Positions 5,841-47,716 of a DNA stretch of 64,000 nt are shown one piece after another. The stretch comes from Malacoraja senta (lineage: Eukaryota). The position numbers and the translations under genes were made by a program. The stretch lies in assembly GCA_038087875.1 (NCBI GenBank), contig CM075994.1:3598001-3662000 (forward strand), given 5' to 3'. Below the pieces are notes generated by a model. It was not told the DNA's origin. It made no database searches and was given only the letters and a program-made list of their open reading frames with translations. Every line of letters begins with the position of its first letter. Within the stretch, counting starts at the first letter, position 1.

Positions 5841-6002
5841 CTATACTCTGTTTCAAGCCACTGAAACGAACCATCAGGATGACCTGAGCTCCCACTCGTG
5901 TGAGGCGCCATCTCTCCTCTCCCTCCTTCAGAGACACAACTTGCACTCGGGGTCCCACTGCCCCGGGGCGACACCGGCCCGAATCCCCGTCCCCGTCCCC
6001 AC

Positions 6003-6107
6003 CTTGATCAGGTCGCACTCGCTGACCGGTCCGTACTTCTCGAACAGGGAGCGGATCTCCTCGACGGTGGTGGGCCGCGACAAGTTGCCCACGAAAATCT
6101 TCACCAT
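6003..6107 (-). CDS. rbm4: RBM4/lark-like coding exon 1 (35 codons, start of RRM1)
   Basis: ATG at 6107, [35 protein letters not shown], then donor AAG|gtgggg at 6002; joins exon 2 in phase 0. Confidence 0.93.
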
Positions 6108-6229
6108 CTTCCTTGTTCTTTTGGAGCGTTTGGAGATGAATAGTGGATAAAGCAGGAGAGGGAGGAAATACGAACTACTGAGCAACAACACAAGTTTAAA
6201 AACAACAAACGCCGGCGACTCTCCGACTC

Positions 6230-6495
6230 GACTCCGCCAACGAGGGCAAAGAAAATGGCGCCGCTTGTCTCCCCGCTCTCTCCTTACGTTTACGCGCTCT
6301 CCTCGCACCCACGCCTCTGATTGGACAACGATCGTGTCGTTCATCACGCCGACTGCGCTGATTGGGTGATACTCAGCGGATGTGTGCTCTGATTGGGCGC
6401 TTGCGCTGTCAACCATCGCAATAGACCCCGCCCCTTGTTGGCCTGCTCGTGCCGGAACCGATCAACAGCGGCCAATCACAGGGGGCGGGAGACCA
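6230..6495 (-). promoter_or_regulatory. CpG-rich TATA-less promoter of rbm4
   Basis: CCAAT boxes (ATTGG at 6320, 6361, 6392; CCAAT at 6472), GC boxes (6426-6434, 6482-6490), ETS-like CCGGAA near 6452 and YY1-like AAAATGGCG near 6252, all just upstream of the ATG exon. Confidence 0.8.
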
Positions 6496-12028: not shown

Positions 12029-15000
12029 TTAATTGTCATCTGAGTCACTCTCGAGCAGAGCATCCTCCTCATCAGACATGTCACTGTCAGAGGCAGATGA
12101 TGCAGCTGGGTCCTCTCCCATGTCAGGCCTCATTGCCCTCATCCCTTCTGCATGCCACAAGCTGATGGCTGGCCGGGGATCAAAGTCCTTGATGTTACTG
12201 CCATACAGCATGTTGAGGAGCTGGTCTGTCACCTGGAGGGACCTTCTGATGCTGGTCATCAGCTGCTTTAGCCTGCTGAAGCCTCGCTCAGCCTCAGCTG
12301 AACTTGCCGGTATGGTAAGGACGAGGTCAAGGAGAGTGCAGATGTTAGGTAGCTCTTCTCTCATCACAGGGATGATGGCTGACCAGGTCAGGGCCTTCTT
12401 GCTGAAGCTATGTAGAGTCATTAAAAGTTATTAACAATACAACTTGTTACATGAGAATATTTATGAAATTAAGTTTTGAATTCTTCAAAAGTAATACAAT
12501 ATTACAAATGCATCATTTAAAAAGAATATTTGAACATTTACTTTGATTGGGAGCTGATCACCACTTTCAGGAGGTCCAACTTTACTCCCAGTTTTGTTGG
12601 GTCCACGTGTTGTACTGTGGTTAGGCTGCCCTTGAAGTGCTGTGCCAGTGACTGGACAGCTTCATTTAAAAAATGTGCGGAAAATAAAGAAAATAAATAT
12701 TGAATCAGTCGACTACTAGCTCTTAGGGCACATGCTTTGAACTTATGTTGCACTTAATCAACTGATGTCACTGTCAGTGTGGAGAATTTCTTCCTGTATT
12801 TTGATATAAAATCTCAAGTATGTAATCATTGTTATAGACTAGTTGTAACTTTACCTTTACGTTTACGGTAAAGTTTAGATTATGATCCATTGTAGCTCAA
12901 AACAGAAAGCTTTATAAAGAAGTAACGTGCAGCAAATTCAGAGAGAATCATATAGTGAATCATACATTATGATTTGCTCCAAATTTCCTCCAGTGTGGTA
13001 TTAAAAATATCTGACTCCTACAAGGAACTAGGCTTTGCAATTGAAATGAATTACTATGAGGTGAACGGAATTAAACATACTGAACAAAAATATGCAATAC
13101 ATCATACTTTAAAAAATCTACATATTTTAAGATTTACTTGAGTTGTTCTGTAAAAAAGCCCATGAACATTTTTCAACATTACTCTTACTGAAATATCACC
13201 TGATAGTTTGCCGTCTGGCCAGAAGTTGAAGCTGACGATCTTCATTGCCTCGCAGACTCCGTCACTCAAGTCATGAAATCTGCCTTGAAGACTTGTTGCC
13301 AGACCATGCAGCAGTTGTGTCAGTCCAGCCTCAATGTCGGTGCTGCCGGTCAGATCTCCCTGAAAATGTGCTTGAAATTCCTGATGTATGAGAAAAAAAA
13401 ATTATAATGCAGTGATTAATGATTTTTTTTTCTGTTAGGTAACACCAATACGTTCATGAAATGTAAAACAACTTCATTTTGCTAAACTGCAACAAAACTG
13501 TTGTGTAGAAATGTGAACCTATCTTTAAATGTGTGTATGACTGACAAAAAAAATGCTGCGTCAACATGGTTTCAGTGTTTTTTCTTTTAATCTTACAATT
13601 CATTGCATGTTAACCTTTGACAAGAATTACCTTTCCTTGTACATTACAAGCGTGGTTTCAGCAGCATGAATGGAACTACATTTGCGTTGATGTTGACTTC
13701 TGTACCACAAGGGACACCTGTGCAATGATACAATCAAAAATGGACATCAAATGAATTAATGGACTTACTTATCATTACACACGGAAACGTTAGTGTACAT
13801 TCTATCATTAAAAAACTGTTTGAAATTAGCACATCCCTGCGGAAATATAAATGGAACTATAGTAAAATTTAACATTAATTTTCTTATTATTGGGACTAGC
13901 CAAAATGAAAATGCCTTCAAGTGGCATTTAAGCATATTATCAGCAATTTTGGTGGGTGTTTTCTCTGTAAAATTAAAGTTTGTGGTGTAGCCTGAAATGC
14001 GAAGTAAAGTTGATGGCTGATTGGCAGAAAACCACAGCAGTTGTGAAAGTGTTGAGTTTATGGTCATAGTGCACCATTAGTTCATTGCTCATATTTATAG
14101 TATTCTTGATATCCATATTTTAAAAATAAAAAATACTCAGTCATTCTGTAATGCTTGATATTGCTCACCTTGGAAAGTATAATGACAACATCGTACAGGA
14201 AAAGGATATACATCAGCACATCCCTGTGCTCCAACAGCTTGTTGAATCCCTTTGTCTTGGCCCCGGCTTCACTGGAAGTGCCCACCTGTGCTTGAAGCTG
14301 CAACAATAATGAGAGAGATTGAAAGGTGGTATTAATGAGCCAGGAAAACAGTAACGCACATGTATTTGATGTGCTTAATGATTACTATTTGGTTATAACT
14401 ATTTATTTTGGAGGAATGACATGCCTCATCCTCATTCATTTTTATCTGGAATCTTCCATGAAAGTTCTAAAATCATGACATGTAGTTATTTCATTTCATA
14501 ATTGTAATTGATTCTAGTTTCAGAAAAAAACTAATTAATACCTGACAGAGATGAGGCACAATCGCTTGGTAGCGTCTGAGGAAATTTCTTATGGCCCGTT
14601 CAAAGTGGGAAATCCATCTTGTTCCTCCCACCCTCGTCGGGATTTCTGGAGCGATTCCAACTGCTTCCGCAGACACTTTGAGGGCACTTCTGTTTTTTGA
14701 ACTGTTCCGGTAGAACAAATATAAGTTCAGAAACAGAGAGTTGACTGTGTTACACAGGTTGACTCCCTTCATGGCGTCCTTGCAGGCCAACTCTAGATGA
14801 TGGGCAGACCAATGCACTGCCTGTACTTCGGGATTCAGACCCTTCATCAAGGTTGCGACGCCACGTTTCCTCCCCTGCATCACACTTGCTCCATCAGAAC
14901 TGAAACCCACCAGTTACTGGGACACTTCCTCTTTATCCATCTCCAGTCTGTGCTTCTGAGCATCAGAGCAGCTTTGATGGACTCGGCATCTGCAGTTACC

Positions 15001-15831
15001 ACCTTTGCCACTGCCACAAACTCTGTGTTGATGGTACCATCGCATGCATGCCGGACATAGACAATCTCATCTTCAGTGATAGAAGAATCAATTGTCCCAT
15101 CACTGATGATGGAGACAAATGGAGACTTCTTCACACGCTGGACTATGCTTCGTCTTTCCACCTGTTCATGAAATTGAATACAAAATGACCTAATTCAGTG
15201 ATTAAATTAACAGACCTGATTTACAATAATATATGTAATGAGATGAATATTGTTTCTATCTACGGAACACTTATGTACTTCCGCTATGAAATGGATGAAG
15301 ACCTGAGCTGCACGGTCATTCTGGTAGGCCGTGCCGATATCGAGGCCCTTCACACTATCCAGCTGACACAGCCAGACGTAGTCGGTGAAAGGCCTGCTTT
15401 CTATAGCCATGGCATGGGCGTTCCTCAATAGGTGTTCCAGCCGATGAATGGTTGTCTCGATAATTTTCTCGATCATCCTTTCTGCTTTTAATGATCCCGC
15501 CTCCGCATGTCTTGCTGCCATTATGCCAACTGCTTTTTGGCGGTTCTCGCTCTCTTCATGTCTCTTGACTGAGTGCAGCTTAAAACTCGTGCTACCATTA
15601 AAAAAACATATTCTGTGTTTTCCCTGGCTCTCCCTTCACGTTTGCCTCCCTGCAAACCTGGCAGAACGTTCCCCCTTTCTTCTCATCATACCTCAACCAT
15701 TTGTGATCACGTTCCCATTCCTTCCTGCAACTTCTTGATCTTTTCTCATCCTCATACTCGTTATCCCTTTCATTTTTTCTTTTCGCTGCCTCATCCCTTG
15801 GGTTTGCCACATTTTTCAGGTAACACCACAT
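12029..15831 (-). pseudogene. Intron-containing hAT transposase (ZNF862-like), at least 7 exons, decayed
   Basis: Exons about 15831-15279, 15161-14542, 14297-14169, 13717-13631, 13380-13200, 12674-12542 and 12407-12029, mostly with GT..AG boundaries. TTF-type Zn finger (WLRYD..TFCQVC), SIISDG, FSSDGAS, VHWSAHHLEL, TRW, PASSAEAERGFS. Frameshifts near 15600 and 14965, in-frame stop near 14915. Confidence 0.88.
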
Positions 15832-18497: not shown

Positions 18498-21400
18498 AGA
18501 GGGAGAGAAGGGATCAGATTTGGGATTTTTTTATCCCGCGAAAATGCGTATTTCCTTTAAGGGTATTGAAAAGTCATTTGTTAAGCCTGAAGAAGCGTTT
18601 AAATATGCCCAAACTATCGTTGAAAGGAAAGGGAGGTTTGGCAGATCTGAACCATTTTAAGCAATGCTTTGTCTGGGGATAGTTACACTGTTATCTTTGG
18701 AATGTTGAATCAAGGACACTTTCTGTTTAAAACGAGTAAACAACTCAACAGATGGGAATGGTATATACCAGAAAGCATATAATTGCTTATTAGATTATAA
18801 TATTATAACCAATTATAAGAACTTATCCTATTAACAACTTAATAAGTTATGCATGTTAGATTAGAATACTAATAAAAACAAAAATAAAAAATAATGAACT
18901 AACATACTAATATGAATTCTTAATAAACTGAAACCCTATCTATAAGTGGGAGGAGGGGATGAGAAACGAGCAACTGGCTTAGGTCCAGGGGCACGTCTCG
19001 TTAACCCCTTCAACCATCAGTTGATTCTTATTGAAGTCAAAAGTATCGGTTTAATAATTAGCAGTTAAAATTCCGATATATATATATGTTATAATGAGGC
19101 CCCGTTTTAATATTATAATATGTTATGATTAACCAAGAGAGCGGAGCTATTTGTGCAAACAACGCAATGGAAGTCAAAACAAGGTTTTTTCCCACCTACA
19201 GGTGGGACACTCGCTACAGTGCCGACTATATCAGACACTGTATCTTCACTTTTTTAGGTTTTTTTTTATCACATAAAATCACTTGTTTGTGTTTTGTGTT
19301 TAGTGATAAGCGTAAAATGGACATACCAGCAAAACTTAAAAACTCAAAAGCTCCCCCAATACCTAAAGACCTAGGATATGGATGCACCACAAGATTTAAA
19401 GGTACTATAATTATTCAAAATGCATGACACCACACAAAAGAACCTAGGAGGAATCTCATTTTGTAGTTGGAATATAAGAGGTATTAACGAACCTTTTAAA
19501 AGGGGTAAGATACTAGCTCAGCTGAAATTGTACAACTCCGACATTACCTTCCTACAAGAAACACACCTAAAATCTCAGGATCAAGTTAGGTTGAGGGCGA
19601 AATGGATAGGTCAAACATACCATTCTTCATTTACTTCAAAATCTAGAGGCACGTCAATCATCATAAGAAAAGGTATACCATTTAAAGCAAAGAATATTAT
19701 AACAGATATAGAAGGGAGATACCTAATAGTTAATGGAGAAATCCATGACACTCCACTTACTTTGGTAAATATATATGCCCCTAACTTTGATAACCCCCAC
19801 TTTTTCAATAAAATTTTCAACATAATTGCAGATGTTATAATAGGAGGAGACTTTAACTGTGTTTTAGATCCGTACTTAGATAAATCAAGTCAAAAACAGA
19901 GAGGGAATATGAAATCGAACTGGTGAACTTCTCAATACCTATATAAACAACACTAATATAGCAGATGTTTGGAGAATTGTTAATCCAACTGGCAGGGAAT
20001 ACTCGTTTTACTCAATGGTACATAAGACATACTCACGTATAGACTACTTTCTGCTGGATACAAAATTAATCCCCCAAACATCTAATGCAATATACCACAC
20101 AAACTCGATTTCAGACCATTCTCCACTAACTTTCTTTTTAAAACTGGAAGGATTGTCTAAGAATAAATCGTTTTGGAGATTTAATTCTCAAATTCTAAAA
20201 GATCCACAAGCGAGTATATATGTAAAAGAACAAATGGAGGTCTTTTTTCAAATAAATGATACTCCAGATATATCGCCTACTGTATTATGGGAATCTTTTA
20301 AAGCATACATTAGGGGTATTATAATTTCATATCAAGCTTTTCAAAATAAAAAGAATAAGAATAAACAAAGACAGTTAGAAGAACTTATTAGACAAATGGA
20401 TATAGATAATGCTAAAGATCCATCAATAGATAAACATAATAAAATAATAATTTTGAAATTTAAATTAAATAAATTATTATCTGCCAAACTTATAAGACTT
20501 TTTCAAATTACAAAACAAGAGCATTTTGCAGTTGGGGATAAACCGCATAAACATTTGGCTCGCCAGCTAAAAAAACGAGAAAAGGAACATACTATACCAA
20601 AGATCAAATCAGACAAAGGGGAATTATTAACAACACCGAAGGATATTAATAATATTTGCGCAATTTTATGAGAATTTGTATACATCTAAAACGACAATTG
20701 ATTCCAATAATATCACAAAGTTCTTGGATACCTGTAATCTTCCAAAGTTAGAGCTGAAGGAACAAGAGGAACTGGGTGCACAAATCTCAATTAAGGAATT
20801 AGAAGATACAATAAACTCACTAAAGAATGGAAAAACACCAGGCCCTGACGGATTTACTAATGAATTTTATAAAAGCTTTTATGATAAAATGATACCAAGA
20901 TTACAAAAAATGTACCAATATGCTTTTAAAAAACGAATACTACCTGATACATTAGCGGAATCAACGATTACATTAATACCTAAGAAAAATAAAGACTTAG
21001 AAGAACCTGGTTCATATAGAGCTATAGCATTGTTAAACACAGATCAAAAAATATTAGCGAAAACATTAGCTAGAAGATTAAGTAAATACATTAGTAAATT
21101 AATAAACCCAGATCAGACGGGGTTTATCCCTAAGAGATACTCATCTAACAATATGAGACGTCTACTCAACATAATGCACTCACACAAATCTGAAGATCAA
21201 GAATTATCAATTATTTCGCTGGATGCTGAAAAAGCATTTGATCAAGTAGAATGGAATTATATGGACAAAGTATTACAAAAATATCAACTGGGGGAGAATT
21301 TTATTCTATGGATCAAGTTACTATATAACAAACCTACAGCTAGAATACTAACTGATAACATATTATCCTCGAAATTCCAACTATCAAGGGGAAATAGACA

Positions 21401-25786: not shown

Positions 25787-26910
25787 ACATTATTATCTCC
25801 CCTTGAACATTGCGGCATCTAACTCAAGGACACTCTGTGCTCAAACGAGGAAAGACTGATAACATGGGACTGACGATCTGATGTGCTGAGAGCGAAAAAC
25901 ATCACATGGCTTATATAGTTTTATAAAATATTGAGAATCAATAATAATTAATAATTAACAATACTAATATAGAAATAGCAATTGAAACTGATAAAAATGT
26001 GTTGCCTGCTTTATAACACAGACAACAGTAATTACATATGTTCCGCAGCTCGAGTGGGGAGGGGAGGAGATTAGGCACCTGGCATAATTCCAGGAGCCTG
26101 ACTCCGGTTAACCCTTTCAGCGAACAGCTCACTTTTAACAATACTAAAACCAATTCAAAATAGTTAAGAGATAAAGAGTGAGGAATATATGTAACTGAAT
26201 ACATTTGAAGTCGGAATGAAACATATATATGGCTTATAGAGTTTTACAAAATATGGAGAATCAATAATAATTAATAATTAACAATACTAATATAGAAATA
26301 GCAATTGAAACTGATAAAAATGTGTTGCCTGCCTTATAACGCAGACAACAGTAATCACATATGTTCCGCAGCTCGAGTGGGGAGGGGAGGAGACTAGGCA
26401 CCTGGCATAACTCCAGGAGCCTGACTCCGGTTAACCCTTTCAGCGAACAGCTCACTTTTAACAATACGAAAACCAATTCAAAATAGTTAAGAGATAAAGA
26501 GTGAGGAATATATGTAACTGAATACAATTGAAGTCGGAATGAAACATATATATATACTGCAACTGGGTGAAATAGAACTGATTTGGAAATGGTACCGACC
26601 CCCTAGGTTTTGGGTAATAAAGGCAGCGGGGCTAACATCATAACATCTACGCCGGAAGCGATATCGATGTCGTACCCCACAGACGAGTGGGACACTCACT
26701 ATGGTGTTGAAATCTCAGACACCGTAAACTTATTTGATATACTTTTATTTTTTATTTTTATCACAATACGTCACATCTATGTGTTTTCTTTCCAAGGACA
26801 ATCGCGGAGGAGAACTACCAAGGAAGTCTATAATAGAAATGCCCCCAAAATAACCAGAGTCCTGAGGTATGAATGCACCATAATAAATAAGATCATTAAA
26901 ATTGGTAAAA

Positions 26911-29900
26911 ATGTACGTTGATAATCAAAAGAAAATGGGAGGAATCACACTATGTAGCTGGAATATAAGGGGTATTAATGAACCTATTAAAAGGGGCAAG
27001 ATACTAGCTCAGTTGAAATCATACAACACGGACATTTCGTTTCTACAGGAAACGCATCTTAAACATCAAGATCAGACGAGACTGAGGGCGAACTGGATAG
27101 GACAAACATTTCACTCTTCATTCACCTCCAAATCTAGAGGTACTGCAATCATCATTCGTAAAGGAATTCCATTTAAATCAAAGAATACTATTTTAGATAA
27201 GGAAGGGAGATACCTTATAGTAGCAGGAGAGATCAATAATACGCCAATTACGCTGGTAAACATATACGCGCCCAATTTCGATAACCCTCAATTTTTTAAT
27301 AAAATTCTGAATATAATTGCAGAATTTAATTATCAAAATGTTATAATTGGAGGAGACTTTAACTGTGTTTTAGACCCTTATCTAGATAAATCGATGCAAA
27401 AACAAAAAGGTAATATGAAATCTAAAACCAGTGAACTTTTACATACATATATGGAAAACACAAATATAGCAGATGTGTGGAGGATTGCAAACCCGACGGG
27501 AAGGGATTATTCGTTTTATTCAACGGTGCATAAAACATACTCACGGATAGACTATTTTCTTGTGGATACAAAATTAATTCCGCACACTATGAACGCTAAA
27601 TACCACACTAATGCGATCTCAGACCACTCTCCGTTAACTTTTGTTTTAAAACTAGATTTATTCATAGACATTCCTTCTAGTTTTAAAACAAAAGTTAACG
27701 GAATTATATTCAGAATTTTATTAAAATTTAAAGACCCACAAGGGAGTATATATCTAAAAAAACAGATGGATCTATTTTTTGAGATAAATGATACACCAGA
27801 TATTTCCCCCACGCTATTATGGGAATCCTTCAAAGCATTTATTAGAGGAGTCATTATTTCATTCCAAGCTTTTCAAAATAAAAAGAATAAGAATGAACAA
27901 AGACATTTAGAAGAACAAATAAAATAATTAGATACAGATAATGCTAAAGATCCAACTATGGATAAACATAATAAAATCCTACTATTGAAATTCAAGCTAA
28001 ATAAATTACTGTCAGAGAAAGTTATAACATTATTTCAAATCACAAAACAAGAACACTTCGAATTCGGGGACAAACCCCACAAACTCCTAGCACGGCAACT
28101 GAAAAAACGGGAAAAAGAGAATGCAATATTAAAGATTAAATCAGACAGAGGGGAATTATTAACGCTACCCAAGGATATCAATAAAAGATTTGCTCAATTT
28201 TAACAGAATCTATACAGAATTTTTAGATAACTGTAACCTACCACAATTAGAACTGAGGGAACAAGATGAACTGGGAGCACAAATTACTTCTAAGGAGATA
28301 GAAGACACAATAAAAACACTAAAGAATGGAAAAACACCAGGACCAGACGGATTCAGTAATGAATTTTATAAATCTTTTTATGACATAGTTACTCCACGAT
28401 TACAGAAAATGTATACACATGCTTTTAAAGAGCAAAACTTACCTGAAACACTAGCAGAATCAACGATCATATTAATACTTAAAAAAGATAAAAATATAGA
28501 AGAACCAGGATCATATAGAGCTATTGCTTTGTTAAATACGGATCAAAAAATAATAGTGAAAACACTAGCCAGTAGACTAAGCAGGTATGTTAGTAGACTA
28601 ATAAATGAGGATCAAACAGGATTTATACCTAAGAGACATTCATTTAATAATTTGAGACGTTTGCTTAACATAATGCACTCACATAAATCTCAGGACCAAG
28701 AGTTATCTATCATCTCATTGGACGCAGAAAAAGCGTTTGATCAAGTAGAATGGGACTATATGATTAAAGTATTGCAAAAATTCCAATTGGGAGAGAACTT
28801 CATTGCATGGATAAAACTATTATATAACAAACCTACGGCTAGAATACTAACTAATAATATATTATCCTCGAAATTTGAACTATCAAGGGGCAATAGAAAA
28901 GGATGTTCATTATCACCGCTGTTATTTGCTTTAGTAATTGAACCCCTTGCTGAAAAAATAAGAACACACATGGATATTTACGGTTATAATACAAAATATT
29001 CAAATAACAAAATATCCCTATATGCCGATGATGTACTATTGTACATCACAAAACCACAAATTAGTATACCAAATATATTAAATTTAATTGAGGACTTTGG
29101 ATCCTTCTCAGGATATAGAATAAACTGGAACAAAAGTGAAATTATGTCGATAAAACCAAAAGACTCAACACACCTCAGGAAATTCCCCTTTAAAATAGCT
29201 ACAGAAAAATTCAAATATTTGGGAATTGAAATTACTAGAAATTACCAGGATATGTTTAAAGCCAATTATAATCCCTTACTTAAGAAATTAAATAATATGA
29301 TTAAATTCTGGAAAACACTTCCGATGTCCTTAATAGGCAGAATAAATGCTATAAAAATGATTTTCTTACCACAAATCCTATACCTATTTCAATCAATACC
29401 TATATATCTCCCAAAAAAGTTTTTCAAAAAATTGGACTCAGACATTACAAATTTTATATGGGATTATAAATCCCATAGAATACAAAGAGCACACCTTAAT
29501 AAACGAAAAGAGTTGGGGGGTCTCGCGCTCCCTAACTTTATGTATTATAATTGGGCAGTAAATATTAAAAATATGATTCACCTGCTGGACAATTCTGCCC
29601 AGCAGGCGGACTGGATTATAATGGAAAAAGGGGACTGTTCCCCGAGTAATATAGGAGCGATTATTCTCTCTCCAATAAATTTGAATAATAAAAATTATAA
29701 TAAAAACCCAATTATAAATAGCACAATTAGAACATGGAAACAAATAAAACAGAATCTAAAATTAAGAAACCTATCTCTCTCAATACCAATAGTTAATAAC
29801 CCATCGTTTAAACCTTCAACCATAGACAAATCATTTATACAATGGGAAAGAATGGGAATCAAAACGCTCGAAGATCTGTATGAATTGGGAAAATTACTAT

Positions 29901-30691
29901 CATTTCAACAACTACAACTGAAATATAATTTGAAAAATAATCAATATTTTAAATATCTACAAATTCGTGATTACCTGAAAAAATACACAAAAGACTATCA
30001 TAATATGCCTTCCGACTTACTAGATGAAGCAATGAAGACAAAGGCGGAATCAGCTAATCTAATATCGTACTTATATAATATCATTTCAAACATAGAAATA
30101 CCCACAACAGATGGAATTAGAAGAGACTGGGAACAAGAATTAGCTATAAAAATTTCAAAAGAGAGCTGGGATAACCATTTACTACAGGTGCATAAATGTT
30201 CGATCAACGTACGACATACGCTCATCCAATTCAAAACATTACATAGACTATATTATTCAAAAACTAAATTAAATAAAATCTTTCCTAATGTTTCACCAAT
30301 CTGGGATAAATGTCTATGTCAAGAAGCTACCATAGCGCATTCTTTTGTTTTTTGTACAAAAATCCAAAAATTCTGGTATGAAATATTTGATATTTTCTCA
30401 AAATTAATTAAAATAAAACTGGTACCAAAACCAGAATGGATCATTTTTGGAATATCGGAAGGTATCCCTGAATTAAACGTGTATCAGAAGAACTTATTCA
30501 ATTACGGGCTAATAATGGGAAAAAAGCTCATACTTAAATTCTGGAAAAATGCGCCCACACCAACAATAAAAATGTGGACATCAAATATGTTGGAAACATT
30601 ACATCTGGAAGAGATGAGATTCCTCTTAGCAGGTAAAGCAGACCAATTCCAAAAGACGTGGTCTACGTTTCTGGACCTATTACAAGCATGA
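26911..30691 (+). pseudogene. L1 ORF2p (APE endonuclease, RT, Cys-rich domain), disrupted
   Basis: Three ORF pieces; stops near 27927 and 28203 and a frameshift near 28200; YADD at about 29021. Confidence 0.95.
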
Positions 30692-32019: not shown

Positions 32020-35000
32020 GCTTTTTTAATGGCACACAGACCTTGAGAATCTCAATGATATCTGTTGTTTTGAATTCCCGCTCTGTTGTTTTTGATTCCA
32101 TTCTGGAAGCATACGGCATTACGTCAACACGTCTTAAAGGGATAGTGAGCCAGTATGTCTAAGGCTCAGCCACAAGAGGGAGATGTGGAACATGAATCTG
32201 GAAAAGAAAGAACCATTAAACACACCGACAAAGGCCAGGTATTGTTCACGCAAAGATGTCAGAAGTCAAGTAACACGGTATGTAAAGAAGATAACAATTG
32301 AAAAGCTGAAGGAACTCATGAAATCAGATGAGAATGCGAAGGAAGTACAATCTAACCCGGTTCAATTAATCAAGCTCTGCAATGAAGTCAGATAAAACCA
32401 CGGGTGAAAGTACCACTGCCTGAAATGGAGCTGGAGAAGCAGAATCAGTGGTTTAAAGAAAGAACAGATTTATTTAATGGTTTTATACAAGATGTGGAGA
32501 GATGGTTATCTGAAGTTGGACAGCAAACTGCACACTCCATTGTTGAAGGTGCCTTACAACAGAGTGTTGTGGAGTCAGAAATTGGACCTAATGACAGTAT
32601 TTCAAATGTCTCAAGACGAAGATCGTGACAAATCTAGTTCTTCATCATGTGAATCTTCAAAGGCCACTGCTCACAAAGCTCAGGCAGAAGAGGCTTCTTG
32701 CTTAGTACGGGTTGCCACCCTGAAGGAAAAGCACAAGCTTGAGGCACAAAAGGACCAAATGGAAAAGAGAGACTGTGCTGGCAGCAACCAATGCCGAGTT
32801 TGAGCTTGAGCTTGAGGCACAAGAAGCACAATTGAAAAGAGCGACAGCACTGACAGCAACCAATGCCAAGCTTGAGCTTGCGCTTGAGGCACAGGATAAA
32901 TATTTCAAGAGTCAAGAGAGTTTATTGTCATATGTTCCAGATAGGACAATGAAATTATTGCTTTGCAGCAGCCCAATGGAATACAGTTAAACGGTATGTT
33001 AAAAGAGAGATGCAACAGTTGGAACTAGAGATGGAGCTGGTGACAACTGATGCAAGGTTTAATATACATGAGGCCAAGAGATCAAGAAGAAATCGTCACA
33101 CATCGGAGAGGTGTCCACTGATCAAGACGAAAGGGCACATGGAAAAGACTTCAAGAGTCGTATGACTTATGATATATGCAAACAAGATCATCCTGAAATA
33201 CTTCACACTGACCAGAAGAACACAGAGAATAAGCCGGAGCGTGCAGAACAGAATGACAAGTCAACTGTGAGTGATGCTGTTTCCTCATCTAAGATGTGTG
33301 CGCATACTGGGGCTAGTGATGAATCTTGCATCTTCTCCATCTTACCAGTACAGGTAAATAGCCGCAAGGGCAACACGGTGTTGCAAACATACGTATTTTT
33401 GGATCATGGAAGTTCAACAACCTTTTGTACAGAAAGCTTGATGAGAAGGCTGAACATTACAGGACAAAAGACTAAGATTCTCTTGCGTACCATAAATGAA
33501 GAGAAGCCTGTGATCAGTCATCATATCTCGGGTTTGGACATATCTAGTCTGGACAAAGTCAATTTTATACAACTATCTGATGTGTTCACACATAAGACCA
33601 TGTCTGTTTCTCATCTAAAGATTCCCAGTCAGGAAGATCTGAAACAATGGCCTTACATGAAGGATATCAAGATTCCTAAAATAGACTCTGGCATCGACCT
33701 ACTCATCGGAACAAATGCTCCAAAGTTATTGGAACCTTGGGAGCTGGTCAACAGCCAAGGGGATGGACCATTTGCCGTGAGGACCCTACTCGGATGGGTC
33801 ATCTATGGTCCCCTGAGAAGAGACAACGAAAGCAGGGATGAAAATAGCTGCCCTGCTGCTACTATCAATCGAATATCCACTGTAAACATAGAAGAGTTAC
33901 TGGTCAAGCAACACAATCACGATTTCAGTTAAATAACTAGTAAGGAAGCAGAAGAAATGCCCAGAGAAGAGGTAAAGTCCTTGGATATTATGTATCAGTA
34001 AAGATGATAGATGAACACTATACTTTAGATATTCCTTTCAAACAAGAAAGCGTCATTTTGCCGAATAACAGTTGCATTGAAGTGCAGCGCATCCAGAGCC
34101 TGAACGCAGGTTTGGCAAGAATAAGAAATTTCATGATGAATACACATATTTCCTTACAGAAATGGTTGATAATGGTTATGCAGAAATTGTACCAGCGGAC
34201 CAGCTGAATCGAAGTGATGGAGAGCTCTTGTACATCCCACACCAAGGGGTGGATCACTCACGGAAAGGAACCTTAAGGGTGTTATTTGACTGTGGGGCAG
34301 TCTTGAAAGGAATATCACTTGACTGCCAACTGCTGCAGGGTCCAGACTTTACCAACTCACTTATTGGAGTTATCATCAGATTCAGACAAGAACCGTTTGC
34401 TTTGATGGATGTTATCAAAGCAATACTTCATCACGTCAATGTATCAGAAAAGCATATTGACTATTTGCAGTTCCTGTGGTGGCCTGAGGATGATGCACAG
34501 CAAGTTCTTGTTGAATACCGGGTGAAGGTACATCTTTTTGGAGCAGTGTCATCACCAAGTTGTGTAAACTTTGCATTAAGGAAGACTGCTGAAGAAAACG
34601 AAGCTCATTTCCCAGCAGAGGTGACAAACACCATAAAGAACAACTATGCAGATGATTGTTTAAAGTCCATGTCTTCGGAACAGGAAGCAATTCAAATGGC
34701 ACACATCTGACTTCCCTCTGCCAAATGGGGGGATTCATGGTGTCAAAGTAGATCAGCAACAGCCGTGCTGTATTGTCATCCATTCCACAAGAAAAACATA
34801 GCCAAGGAGACCAGAAAGTTGGACTTGGACAAATAAAATCTGCCTATGAAAAGGACACTGGGATTGCACTGGTGCGTTGAAGCAGATGTGTTCAAGTTCA
34901 GAATTGCGGTACATGAATGGCCATACATTAGACGGGGCATCTTGTCCGTAGTTAGCCCTTTACATGATCCTTTATGATATCTAGCACCATTTACTCTGCC

Positions 35001-37485
35001 AGCCAAGCTGAATATGCAAGAGCTCTGTAAGGAAAGGCTCAGGTGGGATGAGAGCATAACGCAAACCTTCACTCAGCGATGGACAGGATGCCTAGCAGAT
35101 CTCAACAAGATGTCGTAATTTAAAGTGTAATTTGGGTGCATAAAGCCTGCAAACTTTGGTCAAATCTGATTTGTACAGCTGCATCACTGTTCAGACACAA
35201 GAGAAAGTGGTTACGGTACTGTTTCATATCTAAGACTGGAAAATGATAACAAAGATGTGCATGTTGCATTCATAATGGGAAAAACCAAGATGGCACCATT
35301 GAACAAATGACGATTAACAGAATGGAGTTTACAACTGCAGTCGTAGCTGTCAGAGTGGAGATAATGCTGCTTACAGAAAAGGAATTACAGCTACCTCTGG
35401 ATCAATCCATATTTTGGAACGATAACACAACCGTGCTTAAGTACATCAACAACAAAACCAAATGCTTTCAAACATTTGTAACAAACAGGATCTCCGTTGT
35501 AAGGTATGCTACTGATGTATTACAGTGGAGATATGGTGGCACAAAGGAAAATCCTGCAGATGAAGCCTCTAGAGGACTAACAGCAGACGGCCTCTTAAGT
35601 AGTAAGAGATGGATCAAGGGACCAGGGTTTCTCTGTAAGCCAGACAGAGGGTGGCAAAAGCTTAACCTGGAATCTGCGATCTTGCTAATGATCCGGAAAT
35701 CATGCAAGACATCACAGTGAACGTCATTGTCAAAGATCCATTAGACTCAAGAAACTATTTAATTACCTATTTCTCACCATGGATTAAGCTGAAGACTGTG
35801 GTAGCTTGGTTTGTTAAGCTCTTGCTGCTTACTCCAAAAAGAACGGAGATTACTACGAATAGTTATGAAGAAGTTCCTGGCAAATTAGAGGAAAAGGTTG
35901 ATAAAGAGATGCAAATCTTTAAAGCATCACTCCGCGGGCAGTCTTTATGTCCTGAAAATCTTCTCAAATCAGAAAACACAGTTATCTCTTTCTGTCAAAG
36001 ACAACGATTCAAAGAAGAGCTATGAATATTAGAAGCTGGTAAAAAAGGTATTAAAATAAGTAGTCATTCTAAGTGTAGGTGGTCGCCTGAATAGACTAGC
36101 GATGCCTGAAGAGGCAAAACATCCTATTATTCTCTCGAAGGACCTTCACATATCAACACTACTGTTTCGACATATTCATGGATATCTCGGACATGGTGGA
36201 AGAAATCATATGCTGTCTCGGCTTCGTAAAATATACTGGATATCAAAGCTAACCACTGCAAAGAAGGTCATAACAGATTGTGTCATGTGTAGACGACAGC
36301 GGGGATCAGTTGGAGAACAGAAAATGGCAGACTTGCTCCTGGATAGAATTCTACTTGACAAGCCTCCATTACAGATGTAGGTGGGGGCGCAGCAAGCTGG
36401 CAGCCCTGCCAGCAGCGTGTTGGTGTTTTTCTAGTTTTTTTGTTTTTTTAGTGTGTCTGAATGTGTGTGTTTTAATGTGTCTCTGTGTGTCTTGTGTGGG
36501 GGTGATGTGGGGGGGGGCGGGTAAGGGGGAAACCGCTCTGGTCGCCTCCTCCACGGAGTGGCCACTTGTTCCATGTCGCCTCCCCCGCGGCCTAACAGCA
36601 AGGATCGGTGCGGCCTTTCCAGGAGACGCGCGCGGGGCTTTTCGCGCTGGGGGCGCCGGAGGGGAGCGTTCCGTTCGCTGGCCCGCGGCAACCTGAAGCC
36701 GCGGTCTGCAGAGCTCCAGCTGGCGGCGTCCTGGGCCTGCGATTTCTCGTTGGGGACCCGGGAGGACCCGGGAGGAGAAGAGCTCCGACCGCCGGCCCGC
36801 GGTCAACTTCTACCACGGGCGCGGCGTGGACTTACCATCCTGAGCGGGGTCCCTCGCTGGGGATCCCTGGAGCAGAGCTCCGACCGCCGTCCCTGCGGTC
36901 TGCGGTGCTTCTGGCTGCGGCGCGGCAGGGACTTTAAATCTTCGACCGCCGGCCTGCGGCCTACACCAACTTGAAACCGCGGTCTCCGGTGGGGAGGCAC
37001 CGATTCAGGACTTATCTAGACTTACCTTGTCTTAACATCTTGACGCCCACAGCGGCGACTGCGGAGGGTTGATGTCCGGACCACGGGGGGAAATGGAGGA
37101 GGACTGGCCAATTTTTGTGCCTTCCACCACAGTGATGAATGCTGTGGTGGATGTTTGTGCAAATTTTTATTGTGTTTTTGTCTGTTCTTTTTTTATTGTA
37201 CCGCTGCTGGCAAATTCATTTCACTTGCACTTTATGTGCAAGGGACGAATAAAACTTGACTTGTCTTGACTTGACTTGAGTGTAGACTGCTTCGGTCCTA
37301 TAGAGATCGAGGGAGGACGAAGTCTATTTAAAAGGTATGGTGTAATATTCACCTGCACGGCGAGCAGGGCAGTACATCTTGAAGTTGCATCTGAACTTGA
37401 CACAGACTCCTGCATTTTTGCCTTTCGAAGATTCATCTGTCGACGAGGTCAAGTTTCATCTTTAAGATCAGACAATGGCGCAAAT
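32020..37485 (+). mobile_element. Decayed BEL/Pao LTR retrotransposon (gag-PR-RT-RH-IN), 3'-truncated
   Basis: FLDHGSSTTF (protease), AVRTLLGWVIYGP, LRVLFDC, LLQGPD, VHLFGAVSSPSC, YADD, ENPADEASRG, HGYLGH..CVMC, VDCFGP, AVHLEV, SDNGAN. Confidence 0.93.
36380..37278 (+). mobile_element. GC-rich non-autonomous retroelement of about 900 bp inserted in the BEL integrase
   Basis: Splits ...TDV/GVDCFGP; ends AATAAAA(CTTGA)n; no recognisable protein. Confidence 0.85.
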
Positions 37486-45471: not shown

Positions 45472-47716
45472 TCCTCCCTCTTAAAGAATTAAATGTCAGT
45501 ACAAAACCATTGACTAAATAAAGCATTATTGGCAATTGATAATAAGCTGGAGGAAAGTCAAACATAGCCCGGGTACTTCACGGTGGGCTTGCAAACACGA
45601 CCAGCACGTGTGCGATATAAACCATCTCCGTTTCTCGCCACCAGGTGCAGAGTCGGTGGCAAGACTGGGGTCGGAGATTGAAACAGCATTCCCGGTGATG
45701 AAACAGAGGACTTTGGCACAGGCGGAGGAGGCGTCGCCATTGGCAGATCAGCCGTTTCAGAAGTGGCTTGTTGTGCTGGTACAGGCGGACCGATGCCGCT
45801 GGACGTGGACGGAAGCAAACATGTACGGACTGGATAATACGGAGGTGGAGCCGGCTCATTCACAGACAGGATATGTTGTATGTTACGTCTGTAGGTGCCA
45901 TCATCAGCACTGACCAAATATGAGCGTGTCTCAGAGGCAGTTCCAGAAATTACACCGATACAGTCATGACCTTTGTCAGTTTGCAAACGAACCACCTGCC
46001 CTTGGTTAATGGTGGCAACGGCCAGCTTGCTTTGTCATACCACTGTTTTTGAATGTCACGCTTTTGCTGCAGACTGGACTGGACTTCCGATGGTGGGACC
46101 ACCTGTGGGATCAATGCCTGATCAACCACAAGCACCGTGGCTCGGGTCTGCCTTGACAATAAGCGTTGAGCAGGTGAACCCAAGATGGGGTCGCGGGAGA
46201 TGTTGCGTAGGTTGAGCAGGTCCAGATACACGTCGGAATTAGCTCTATGGGATCGTTCCATGAGCGTGTTTGGCACTTTTGACAGCCCGTTCATCTAGTC
46301 CATTCGACTGTGGATATTCAGGGATGCTGGTGATGTGGCAAAAAAACCCAGCGTGCAGCAAACTCCATGAAGTGTTGGCTGGGAAATTAACTGCCGTTAC
46401 CAAATAGCAGTATGCAAGGAGCTCCGTGGTCTGCAAAATGGCGAGAGAGTTTTAAAACTACCTCGCGAGAAGTGGGGCTGCTTAGAAAATCGATATCAAA
46501 CCAGCCAGAATACGAGTCGACAAGTACCAGGTACTGCTTGCAATACCACTCATATATGCCAGTTGCCACTGTAGACCACGGAAGGGCAGGAGCCGGATGT
46601 GAGAGAAGTGGTTGCTTTTGTTGATGAGGTGCCAAGCTATTACACACTGCACAGGATGTCACCTCTCGAGGATGTATTCAGCCATATCAGGCCACTAAAA
46701 CATGTATTTCGCTCGTAATACAGTGGCTTCAGCGCCTGGGTGCCCTGCATGGACAGCGTTGAAATGCTTGTTGTGCAGCGAAGCAGGGACTACAGCCTTA
46801 TGGCCTTTTACGATAAAGCCATCCTGCAGCACTAGCTCATCGCGGACTGCAAAGAAGGGCTGAACTTGCAGCGGTACATTGTAGTGTTTGTCTGGCCAGC
46901 CGCACTTAATGACGGAGGTGAGCGACCGTAAGGTACTGTCAGCAGCAGTGTGGGCAAGCAGGTCCTCCACACAGGTCCAGGGAATAAAAGACACAGTCAT
47001 TATGATAAAGTCGTCATCCGGTGACCCCGGGCTCGCGCAGGTCTTTCGGGATGCACGCGAGAGGGTGTCAGCCAGGTGCATGTCCTTATCACGTTTGCAG
47101 GTCAGGACAATGTCATATTTTTGAAGTTGCAGCAACATCCATTGAAGGCGTCCTGGAGAGGCATGAATCGGTTTGTTAAAGATGCTGACCAAGGTTGGTG
47201 GTCAGTTTCAATCGTGACCGTATGTACAAAGATAAAGTCGTTAAATTTCTTGCAGGTGAAAACGACCGCTAGCAGCTCTTTTTCAATTTGGGCATAGCGT
47301 TGTTCTGTGTATGTCTTAGTGCGCGAGGCAAAGGCAAAAGGTTTGTTGCTGCTACCGCCATTTTTAAGACATGCTGCGCCAAGTCCGTGTTGTGAAGCGT
47401 CACAAGTCAGTGTGACCGGTCGTTTAGGATCAAAATAGGCGAGAGTAGGAGCACAAGACATCTGCTGCGTAAGAGTGTCGAACGCCCTCTGCTGTTGTTC
47501 GTGCCAGGCCCAAGCAATGTATTTGAGGGTAACCTGGCTCAGCGGGGCTGAAATTTCACTGAAGTCTGGAATAGATTTACTCAGGTAGATAACCAGGCTA
47601 AGGAATATCTGCAGACTGAGCACGTCTGTGGGTGCTGGGAGCTAGTTGATGGCACTGGTTTTCGCCGGATCCGTTATTAGCCCGTCCTTAGAGAACACAT
47701 GACATATGTATTTCAC

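Follow-up and report, generated by a model that had tools for sequence, protein, structure and literature searches.

A structured motif in the long spacer of L1 retrotransposons as the probable start site of a hidden frame that ends at the ORF2 AUG

The window, a stretch of 64,000 nucleotides, contains two L1 copies that belong to different families (a and b); in both, a long spacer precedes an ORF2 with endonuclease and reverse transcriptase domains. Copy b encodes PF03372 and PF00078, endonuclease followed by reverse transcriptase (RT), behind an ORF1 with only weak, coiled-coil-type Pfam matches. We take these elements to be members of the L1 clade, an assignment that leans on this domain order and on sequence likeness. 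Over its first 300 nt, ORF2 is 79% identical between the two copies. Elsewhere in the window, segments on the minus strand (24-461 and 5928-6416) are presumably exons of an RNA-binding protein gene similar to RBM4, and broken frames at 12029-15521, 33162-36025 and 45950-47461 belong to what we assume to be DNA-transposase-like and LTR-retrotransposon-like classes. The genome-wide comparisons cover one 1.94-Gb vertebrate assembly, so that all families compared come from the same genome and are mutually related.

19420..19926, plus strand: start of L1 ORF2 (endonuclease) of copy a; broken downstream
26911..27927, plus strand: N-terminal part of L1 ORF2 (endonuclease) of copy b
28409-30691, plus strand: RT part of ORF2 of copy b, from the PF00078/PF03372 search

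A sequence-only reading of the window had pointed to a multi-stem motif shared by both spacers. All of its pieces were found in copies a and b where that reading had placed them, including the U-rich tract 3' of the motif hairpin, and the two motifs do lie at a similar distance from ORF2 (177 nt from the hairpin end to the ATG at 19420 in copy a, 184 nt to the ATG at 26911 in copy b). Within the window, the 5' box and GTGGGACACTC occur at these two sites only. The motif stands at the beginning of an open frame hidden in the spacer, and its parts are as follows.

19142..19148, plus strand: 5' box CGGAGCT of copy a; distance to the start codon 17-30 nt, depending on the family
19167..19173, plus strand: likely start codon ATG with GAAG, copy a; ACG in most other families
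19169-19173, plus strand: GGAAG of copy a, following on from the start codon position
19190..19207, plus strand: hairpin P3 of copy a, TCCCAC/GTGGGA with a CCAC/GTGG core, from pairing and covariation
19215..19242, plus strand: hairpin P4 of copy a, TACAGTG/CACTGTA, of variable sequence with compensatory pairs
19352..19390, plus strand: partly conserved 3' block of the hidden frame, copy a, about 35-75 nt before its stop
19167..19427, plus strand: hidden frame of copy a, 86 codons and TGA; stop 5 nt after the ORF2 ATG (ATG-CA-TGA)
26627..26633, plus strand: 5' box CGGGGCT of copy b, from the sequence
26649..26658, plus strand: likely start codon ACG, in-frame CCG and GAAG of copy b; the related copy L277 has ATG-CCG-GAAG
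26676..26691, plus strand: hairpin P3 of copy b, from sequence and folding
26700..26726, plus strand: hairpin P4 of copy b, from sequence and folding
26842-26882, plus strand: counterpart in copy b of the 3' block of copy a
26649..26921, plus strand: hidden frame of copy b, 90 codons and TGA; stop 8 nt past the ORF2 ATG, 5 nt in the family majority

The motif is widespread in the genome. The pattern CCCAC-N4-8-GTGGGACACTC gave 1002 genome-wide matches against 2 for a reversed control, and two relaxed patterns for other families added many families: one matched 479 times, the other 74 times, and neither control matched at all. In a sample of the clade's L1s that was drawn through the ORF2 start and took no account of the motif, 64 of 83 copies carried the motif core, and four of the five misses given to profile R1, a model that contains no base pairs, matched it. 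What the clade shares is the box, A(C/T)G-GAAG, CCAC-N5-6-GTGG, a variable hairpin and then a U-rich tract. The string proposed by the sequence-only reading holds for the box, GGAAG (present in 50 of 51 representatives) and the stem, whereas only families a and b have ACACTC and a third G in GTGGG. Identity between the two families is 60% in the motif, 59% in the remainder of the hidden frame and 38% in the 110 nt upstream. The motif is a genuine, structured element of the whole clade. Three distant L1 groups lack it, and 0 of their 17 loci matched R1. The full motif was not seen by eye among the zebrafish, frog and lizard spacers in parts 3 and 4 of the supplement of PMC5381506. In a metagenome set, the motif search returned 117 loci, none of which encodes an L1 endonuclease, and the prokaryote and viral collections searched yielded nothing.

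The spacers hold further structure. A second conserved hairpin (motif 1), in which a purine run pairs with TAACCCC, is found at window positions 18947-19011, 26057-26119 and 26380-26442 and sits 120-270 nt upstream of the main motif in several families; since no sign of it was seen by eye in families c and d, it is probably dispensable for the start of the hidden frame. A 323-nt tandem duplication that includes motif 1 (window about 25900-26550) is common to most of 40 scored copies of the family b spacer. Ten near-identical family a spacer copies follow each other on one strand in steps of 20-37 kb (G000:C4686, 41610-299904), which suggests a large tandem array.

The two hairpins fold better as a pair than shuffled sequences do (z -4.1 in copy a, -2.6 in copy b), and the signal is weak over the whole stretch of 105 or 102 nt (z -1.85 and -0.85). 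P3 is 92.9% paired across 29 sequences with a covariation score above that of 500 out of 500 shuffles, and its closing pair is C-G in 8 cases, G-C in 6, A-U in 4 and something else in 7. Since the P3 core is invariant, a sequence-specific role could explain the core. For P4, 33 of 50 representatives fold better than their base-shuffled versions, with z below -2. The sequence-only reading had called it a covarying hairpin; compensatory pairs are indeed present when rows are registered by hand, where three positions beat shuffles (0, 3 and 0 of 2000) with 37 of the 50 rows used, 8 dropped as off-register and 5 set apart, but RNAalifold did not recover P4 on automatic alignments, in which the rows are misregistered. 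Pairing and compensatory changes thus support both predicted hairpins.

From the A(C/T)G codon of the motif the hidden frame runs for 74-99 codons, depending on the family, to the ORF2 AUG. Its register is kept. Of 174 unique loci, 167 have a spacing of 15 or 18 nt from GAAG to CCAC, while the box lies 17, 18, 19 or 21-30 nt from the start, distances that do not keep to multiples of three across families. The modal distance from the start to an anchor codon near the 3' end (180-234 nt) is divisible by three in all ten clusters with at least three scored copies each; among single copies this holds for 96 of 138, against 69 of 163 and 25 of 118 for two non-coding control spacings. The frame is also kept open. 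In 10 of 15 clusters of at least three copies each, no stop interrupts the majority sequence until 25 nt or less from the ORF2 AUG, and in an eleventh 5 of 6 copies are open. The majority frame is broken at a T/A run in the other four clusters (G05, G08, G14 and G15), where 1 of 7, 0 of 4, 1 of 3 and 1 of 2 scored copies are open. In the young families a and b, 39 of 56 and 8 of 17 copies are open. On the tree of nine family majorities one would expect about 53 gains of a stop, a rough estimate that takes neither reversion nor alignment error into account. The other five frames contain stops in nearly all of 24 representatives, a set in which 15 are single copies chosen because they are open.

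The start codon position is occupied by ATG in 54 of 57 family a copies, and by ACG or ATG in 97 of 100 listed matches to a pattern that left these bases free, read by eye; three other such counts are partly circular because their patterns required one of these codons. Of 24 representatives, 19 carry an in-frame stop in the 15 codons upstream, and 9 lack any in-frame AUG that could be used. One family (L369, L424) has AAG in place of this codon; seven codons upstream it has ATG or ATT in the same frame. The base at -3 is T in 29 of 51 representatives, and an AUG occurs within 25 nt upstream in 30 of 51 (15 followed by a stop as AUG-stop, 7 in frame, 8 out of frame). The P3 core begins 22, 25 or 28 nt from the start codon, depending on the family. 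Hairpins placed 14-18 nt downstream are reported to boost non-AUG starts (PMC5666671); P3 is short, with 5-6 pairs, and lies slightly farther from the codon than this optimum. Two other starts were discarded, one with Gly-Ala at the box and one at the ATG of position 19125, as both hinge on a 1-nt insertion in the window copy. Families with GTG or TTG starts gave 9 matches against 12 in the control, and pairing of the box with 18S rRNA gave no signal (one complement of GGAGCT against 0.41 expected).

At its other end, the hidden frame stops close to the ORF2 AUG, at most 11 nt past it or 13 nt short of it. Measured as AUG minus stop in 24 representatives, the offsets are -11 (2), -8 (1), -5 (3), +2, which reads UAAUG (2), +4 (2), +9 (9), +10 (3) and +13 (1), with one unscored. 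The stop is thus as close as coupled termination-reinitiation demands in 23 of 24, and lies at -25 in one subfamily. All three frame relations occur, which excludes a fixed frameshift, and a frameshift fusion into ORF2 was ruled out for this reason. Typical stop-restart layouts are AUGn(2,5,8,14)UGA, UAAUG and AUGA (PMC5972666), and the junctions of the hidden frame with ORF2, among them UAAUG and AUG-nn-stop, match these layouts. The sequence-only reading had argued that spacers of 0.7-1.1 kb make termination-reinitiation unlikely. This premise fails, because the hidden frame that begins in the motif stops at the ORF2 AUG. The UGGGA word of a termination upstream ribosome-binding site (TURBS) is present in just 5 of the 24 representatives, at two distances, against 1.4 expected, and the UGGGA inside P3 is confined to families a and b, so that a TURBS at the motif was rejected as well. 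The partly conserved 3' block, with a C-run, GAGGT, GCACC, a possible small hairpin and no UGGGA, may be a candidate reinitiation signal. In the three distant L1 groups that lack the motif, frames of at least 75 codons ending as AUG-nn-stop were found in 5 of 6, 5 of 10 and 4 of 16 copies, raw counts without a shuffle control. The zebrafish element L1-12B (PMC5381506, supplement 4) shows, by eye and post hoc, a 39-codon open stretch that reaches its apparent ORF2 start; its listed spacer seems to enter the start of the endonuclease, the ORF2 start apparently having been set too far downstream.

We considered whether the hidden frame might matter for its product, as a functional small membrane peptide and third L1 protein of which the motif would merely be the start. 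The frame is open and in register, many of the peptides contain a hydrophobic segment (hydropathy of the best 19 residues 0.9-2.6) and a few residues recur toward the peptide end. The peptide nevertheless drifts. Over eight non-overlapping pairs, pooled pN/pS is 0.87 in the hidden frame compared to 0.24 in the ORF2 start, for which 28-29 codons were compared, and changes at the three codon positions number 134/141/116 as opposed to 19/11/45. By thirds the hidden frame scores 0.81, 0.82 and 0.97, none with a third-position excess. The purifying selection expected of a protein-coding third gene was thus not seen in these pairs, and selection keeps the frame open and not the amino acids. The hydrophobicity is a consequence of U-rich codons, and in some families a P3 loop shorter by 1 nt shifts the next codons and is compensated later. 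The frame has no Pfam match, and a search covering lengths of 55-175 found no homolog of a 100-aa frame. A third protein is, in our judgement, quite improbable. The sequence-only reading had held that a coding upstream ORF would speak against a translation element; such a frame is present, a conserved peptide is not.

There remain several ways in which ribosomes could reach the start codon or ORF2. The distance from the ORF1 stop to the start of the hidden frame is 506 and 862 nt in the two window copies, and on this way of some 500-860 nt about 13 AUGs are passed. Scanning from the ORF1 stop is disfavoured because these AUGs are not depleted (96 observed in 13 spacers, 104 expected). An internal DNA promoter would yield a short capped transcript, along which ribosomes would scan to the hidden start or to ORF2, and downstream of such a promoter the hidden frame may still act. 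In this reading the box would be a GC-box and CGGAAG an ETS-type site. In 13 of 51 representatives the box has GGGCGG(A/G)G in front of it, the retained GGAAG fits this idea and a distant L1 group has both words adjacent on the minus strand; there, in L216 and L241, GGCGGAGC stands beside C(C/A)GAAGTGAC about 60-80 nt upstream of the ORF2 ATG, a candidate antisense promoter. Yet the GC-box is missing in 38 of 51 representatives, and the family of L359 and L403 has GGAG, a synonymous change that breaks the ETS core and keeps the Glu codon. The 5' ends of copies do not cluster at the motif: only 5 of 77 copies lose homology less than 100 nt from the start, each at a different place, and 55 of 77 extend at least 790 nt upstream; 11 ends fall at 334-421 nt, partly from the lack of a close partner. 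Hairpin pairing and triplet register are left unexplained by a promoter, and L1 proteins work chiefly in cis on their own RNA (PMC4072516). We regard the promoter as unlikely. Direct loading of ribosomes on the ORF2 AUG by an IRES (internal ribosome entry site), with an incidental open frame, would account for a conserved structure and U-rich tract upstream of ORF2, and IRESs were called in silico in 32 of 36 long L1 spacers (PMC5381506). It explains neither the triplet register nor the absent stops nor a stop that is consistently placed at the AUG, and the distance between motif and ORF2 differs by about 70 nt among families. We hold this reading to be very improbable. Known IRES folds, Rfam families including the dicistrovirus type, gave no match to the motif.

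Splicing could drop the upstream spacer, so that the hidden frame follows directly on ORF1 or on the 5' leader, with the motif as an acceptor mark, and a pyrimidine run with AAG directly 5' of the box in many families would suit this. However, no deletion above 60 nt was found in 56 family a copies. Eight other clusters showed three in 48 copies, none with GT-AG ends, and the calls in family b were tandem-repeat artefacts. Among 15 shown of 17 joints (DNA contigs, two runs), none was GT-AG, and several families have in-frame stops between that AG and the start. We would give splicing very little chance. A branch point with splice acceptor had been tried as a candidate and dropped, as CACTNAC is not clade-wide and intron-less copies were not seen. 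Other non-LTR elements use ribozymes, and the compact conserved stems could likewise form a self-cleaving ribozyme or an RNA processing site. Rfam returned nothing at the gathering threshold, and a search relaxed to E of 5 gave a single chance-level snoRNA match outside the motif; 5' ends of copies are not piled up at the motif and no known catalytic core was recognised by eye, which makes this reading extremely unlikely. Internal entry is thus favoured over an internal promoter, splicing and scanning, by exclusion only.

We think it likely that the motif is the start-site element of the hidden frame of 74-99 codons, and that ribosomes which terminate at its end would restart on ORF2. The structured translation element for ORF2 that the sequence-only reading proposed remains the best reading, although it would start this relay frame and not seat ribosomes on the ORF2 AUG itself. 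Ribosomes would load here by internal entry on the full-length RNA, with the 5' box as a putative binding site, the least certain step. They would initiate at the ACG or AUG, where the invariant +4 G would help, as would the hairpin some 20 nt downstream, and translate the relay frame, whose stop would deliver them beside the ORF2 AUG. ORF2 would then be made by termination-reinitiation, and the weak start would keep the level of its protein low. It is conceivable, though rather doubtful, that the motif represents a compact new cellular IRES starting at ACG and that long-spacer vertebrate L1s are generally tricistronic, with an internally loaded, peptide-neutral relay frame dosing the RT.

How L1s produce ORF2 protein across spacers of hundreds of bases is an open question (PMC5381506, PMC3894237). 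Termination-reinitiation itself is already known; the new part would be a dedicated, peptide-neutral relay frame with a structured start. The motif has no Rfam match, and neither such a motif nor a conserved sense spacer frame was found in the literature searched on L1 spacers, ORF2 translation and non-AUG starts (subscription journals and Repbase lay outside), in line with the sequence-only reading, which did not recognise the motif as a described one. The question of ORF2 translation is thereby reduced to point mutations in one start codon, two hairpins and one stop. If true, our reading would reconcile IRES and reinitiation models, give a reason why long spacers are not simply deleted and offer a natural alignment of a structured ACG start site across many families.

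Termination-reinitiation at ORF2 of mammalian L1 was described by Alisch et al. 2006, as reported in PMC5972666 and PMC4072516. As there, ORF2 is predicted to be served by ribosomes that end an upstream frame near its AUG; here this frame is not ORF1 but a dedicated one of 74-99 codons with its own structured, mostly ACG start. In the long-spacer L1 of megabats, mutation of the spacer AUGs cut retrotransposition about 3.3-fold and removal of the 3' third about 6.9-fold, from which Yang et al. 2014 (PMC4072516) drew support for reinitiation that follows small ORFs. Both systems share the long spacer and small spacer ORFs as the proposed source of an upstream stop, whereas a conserved long frame, a non-AUG start and an RNA motif are found here and not described in the available text of that paper. 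SART1, with its UAAUG, and the TURBS of calicivirus and influenza B also have stop and restart codons that overlap or abut (PMC5972666, PMC10275272), and both UAAUG and AUG-nn-stop are among the junctions of the relay frame. Unlike in TURBS, UGGGA is infrequent here (the 5 of 24 above), and it is where the upstream frame begins, not beside the junction, that the structure is found. Initiation at non-AUG codons with the help of a hairpin (Kozak 1990 and the AUU of PTEN-beta, according to PMC5666671) likewise combines a near-cognate codon with a conserved hairpin shortly downstream, but in scanned 5' leaders, while the L1 site is internal, behind about 13 AUGs, and its hairpin core begins 22-28 nt from the codon. 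Question and type of element are shared with the IRESs that Boissinot and Sookdeo 2016 (PMC5381506) predicted for the long L1 spacers of vertebrates. Those IRESs were predicted in silico, had no common structure and were located within 10 nt of the ORF2 start; the motif described here has a shared structure, lies about 280 nt upstream of ORF2 and opens a frame.
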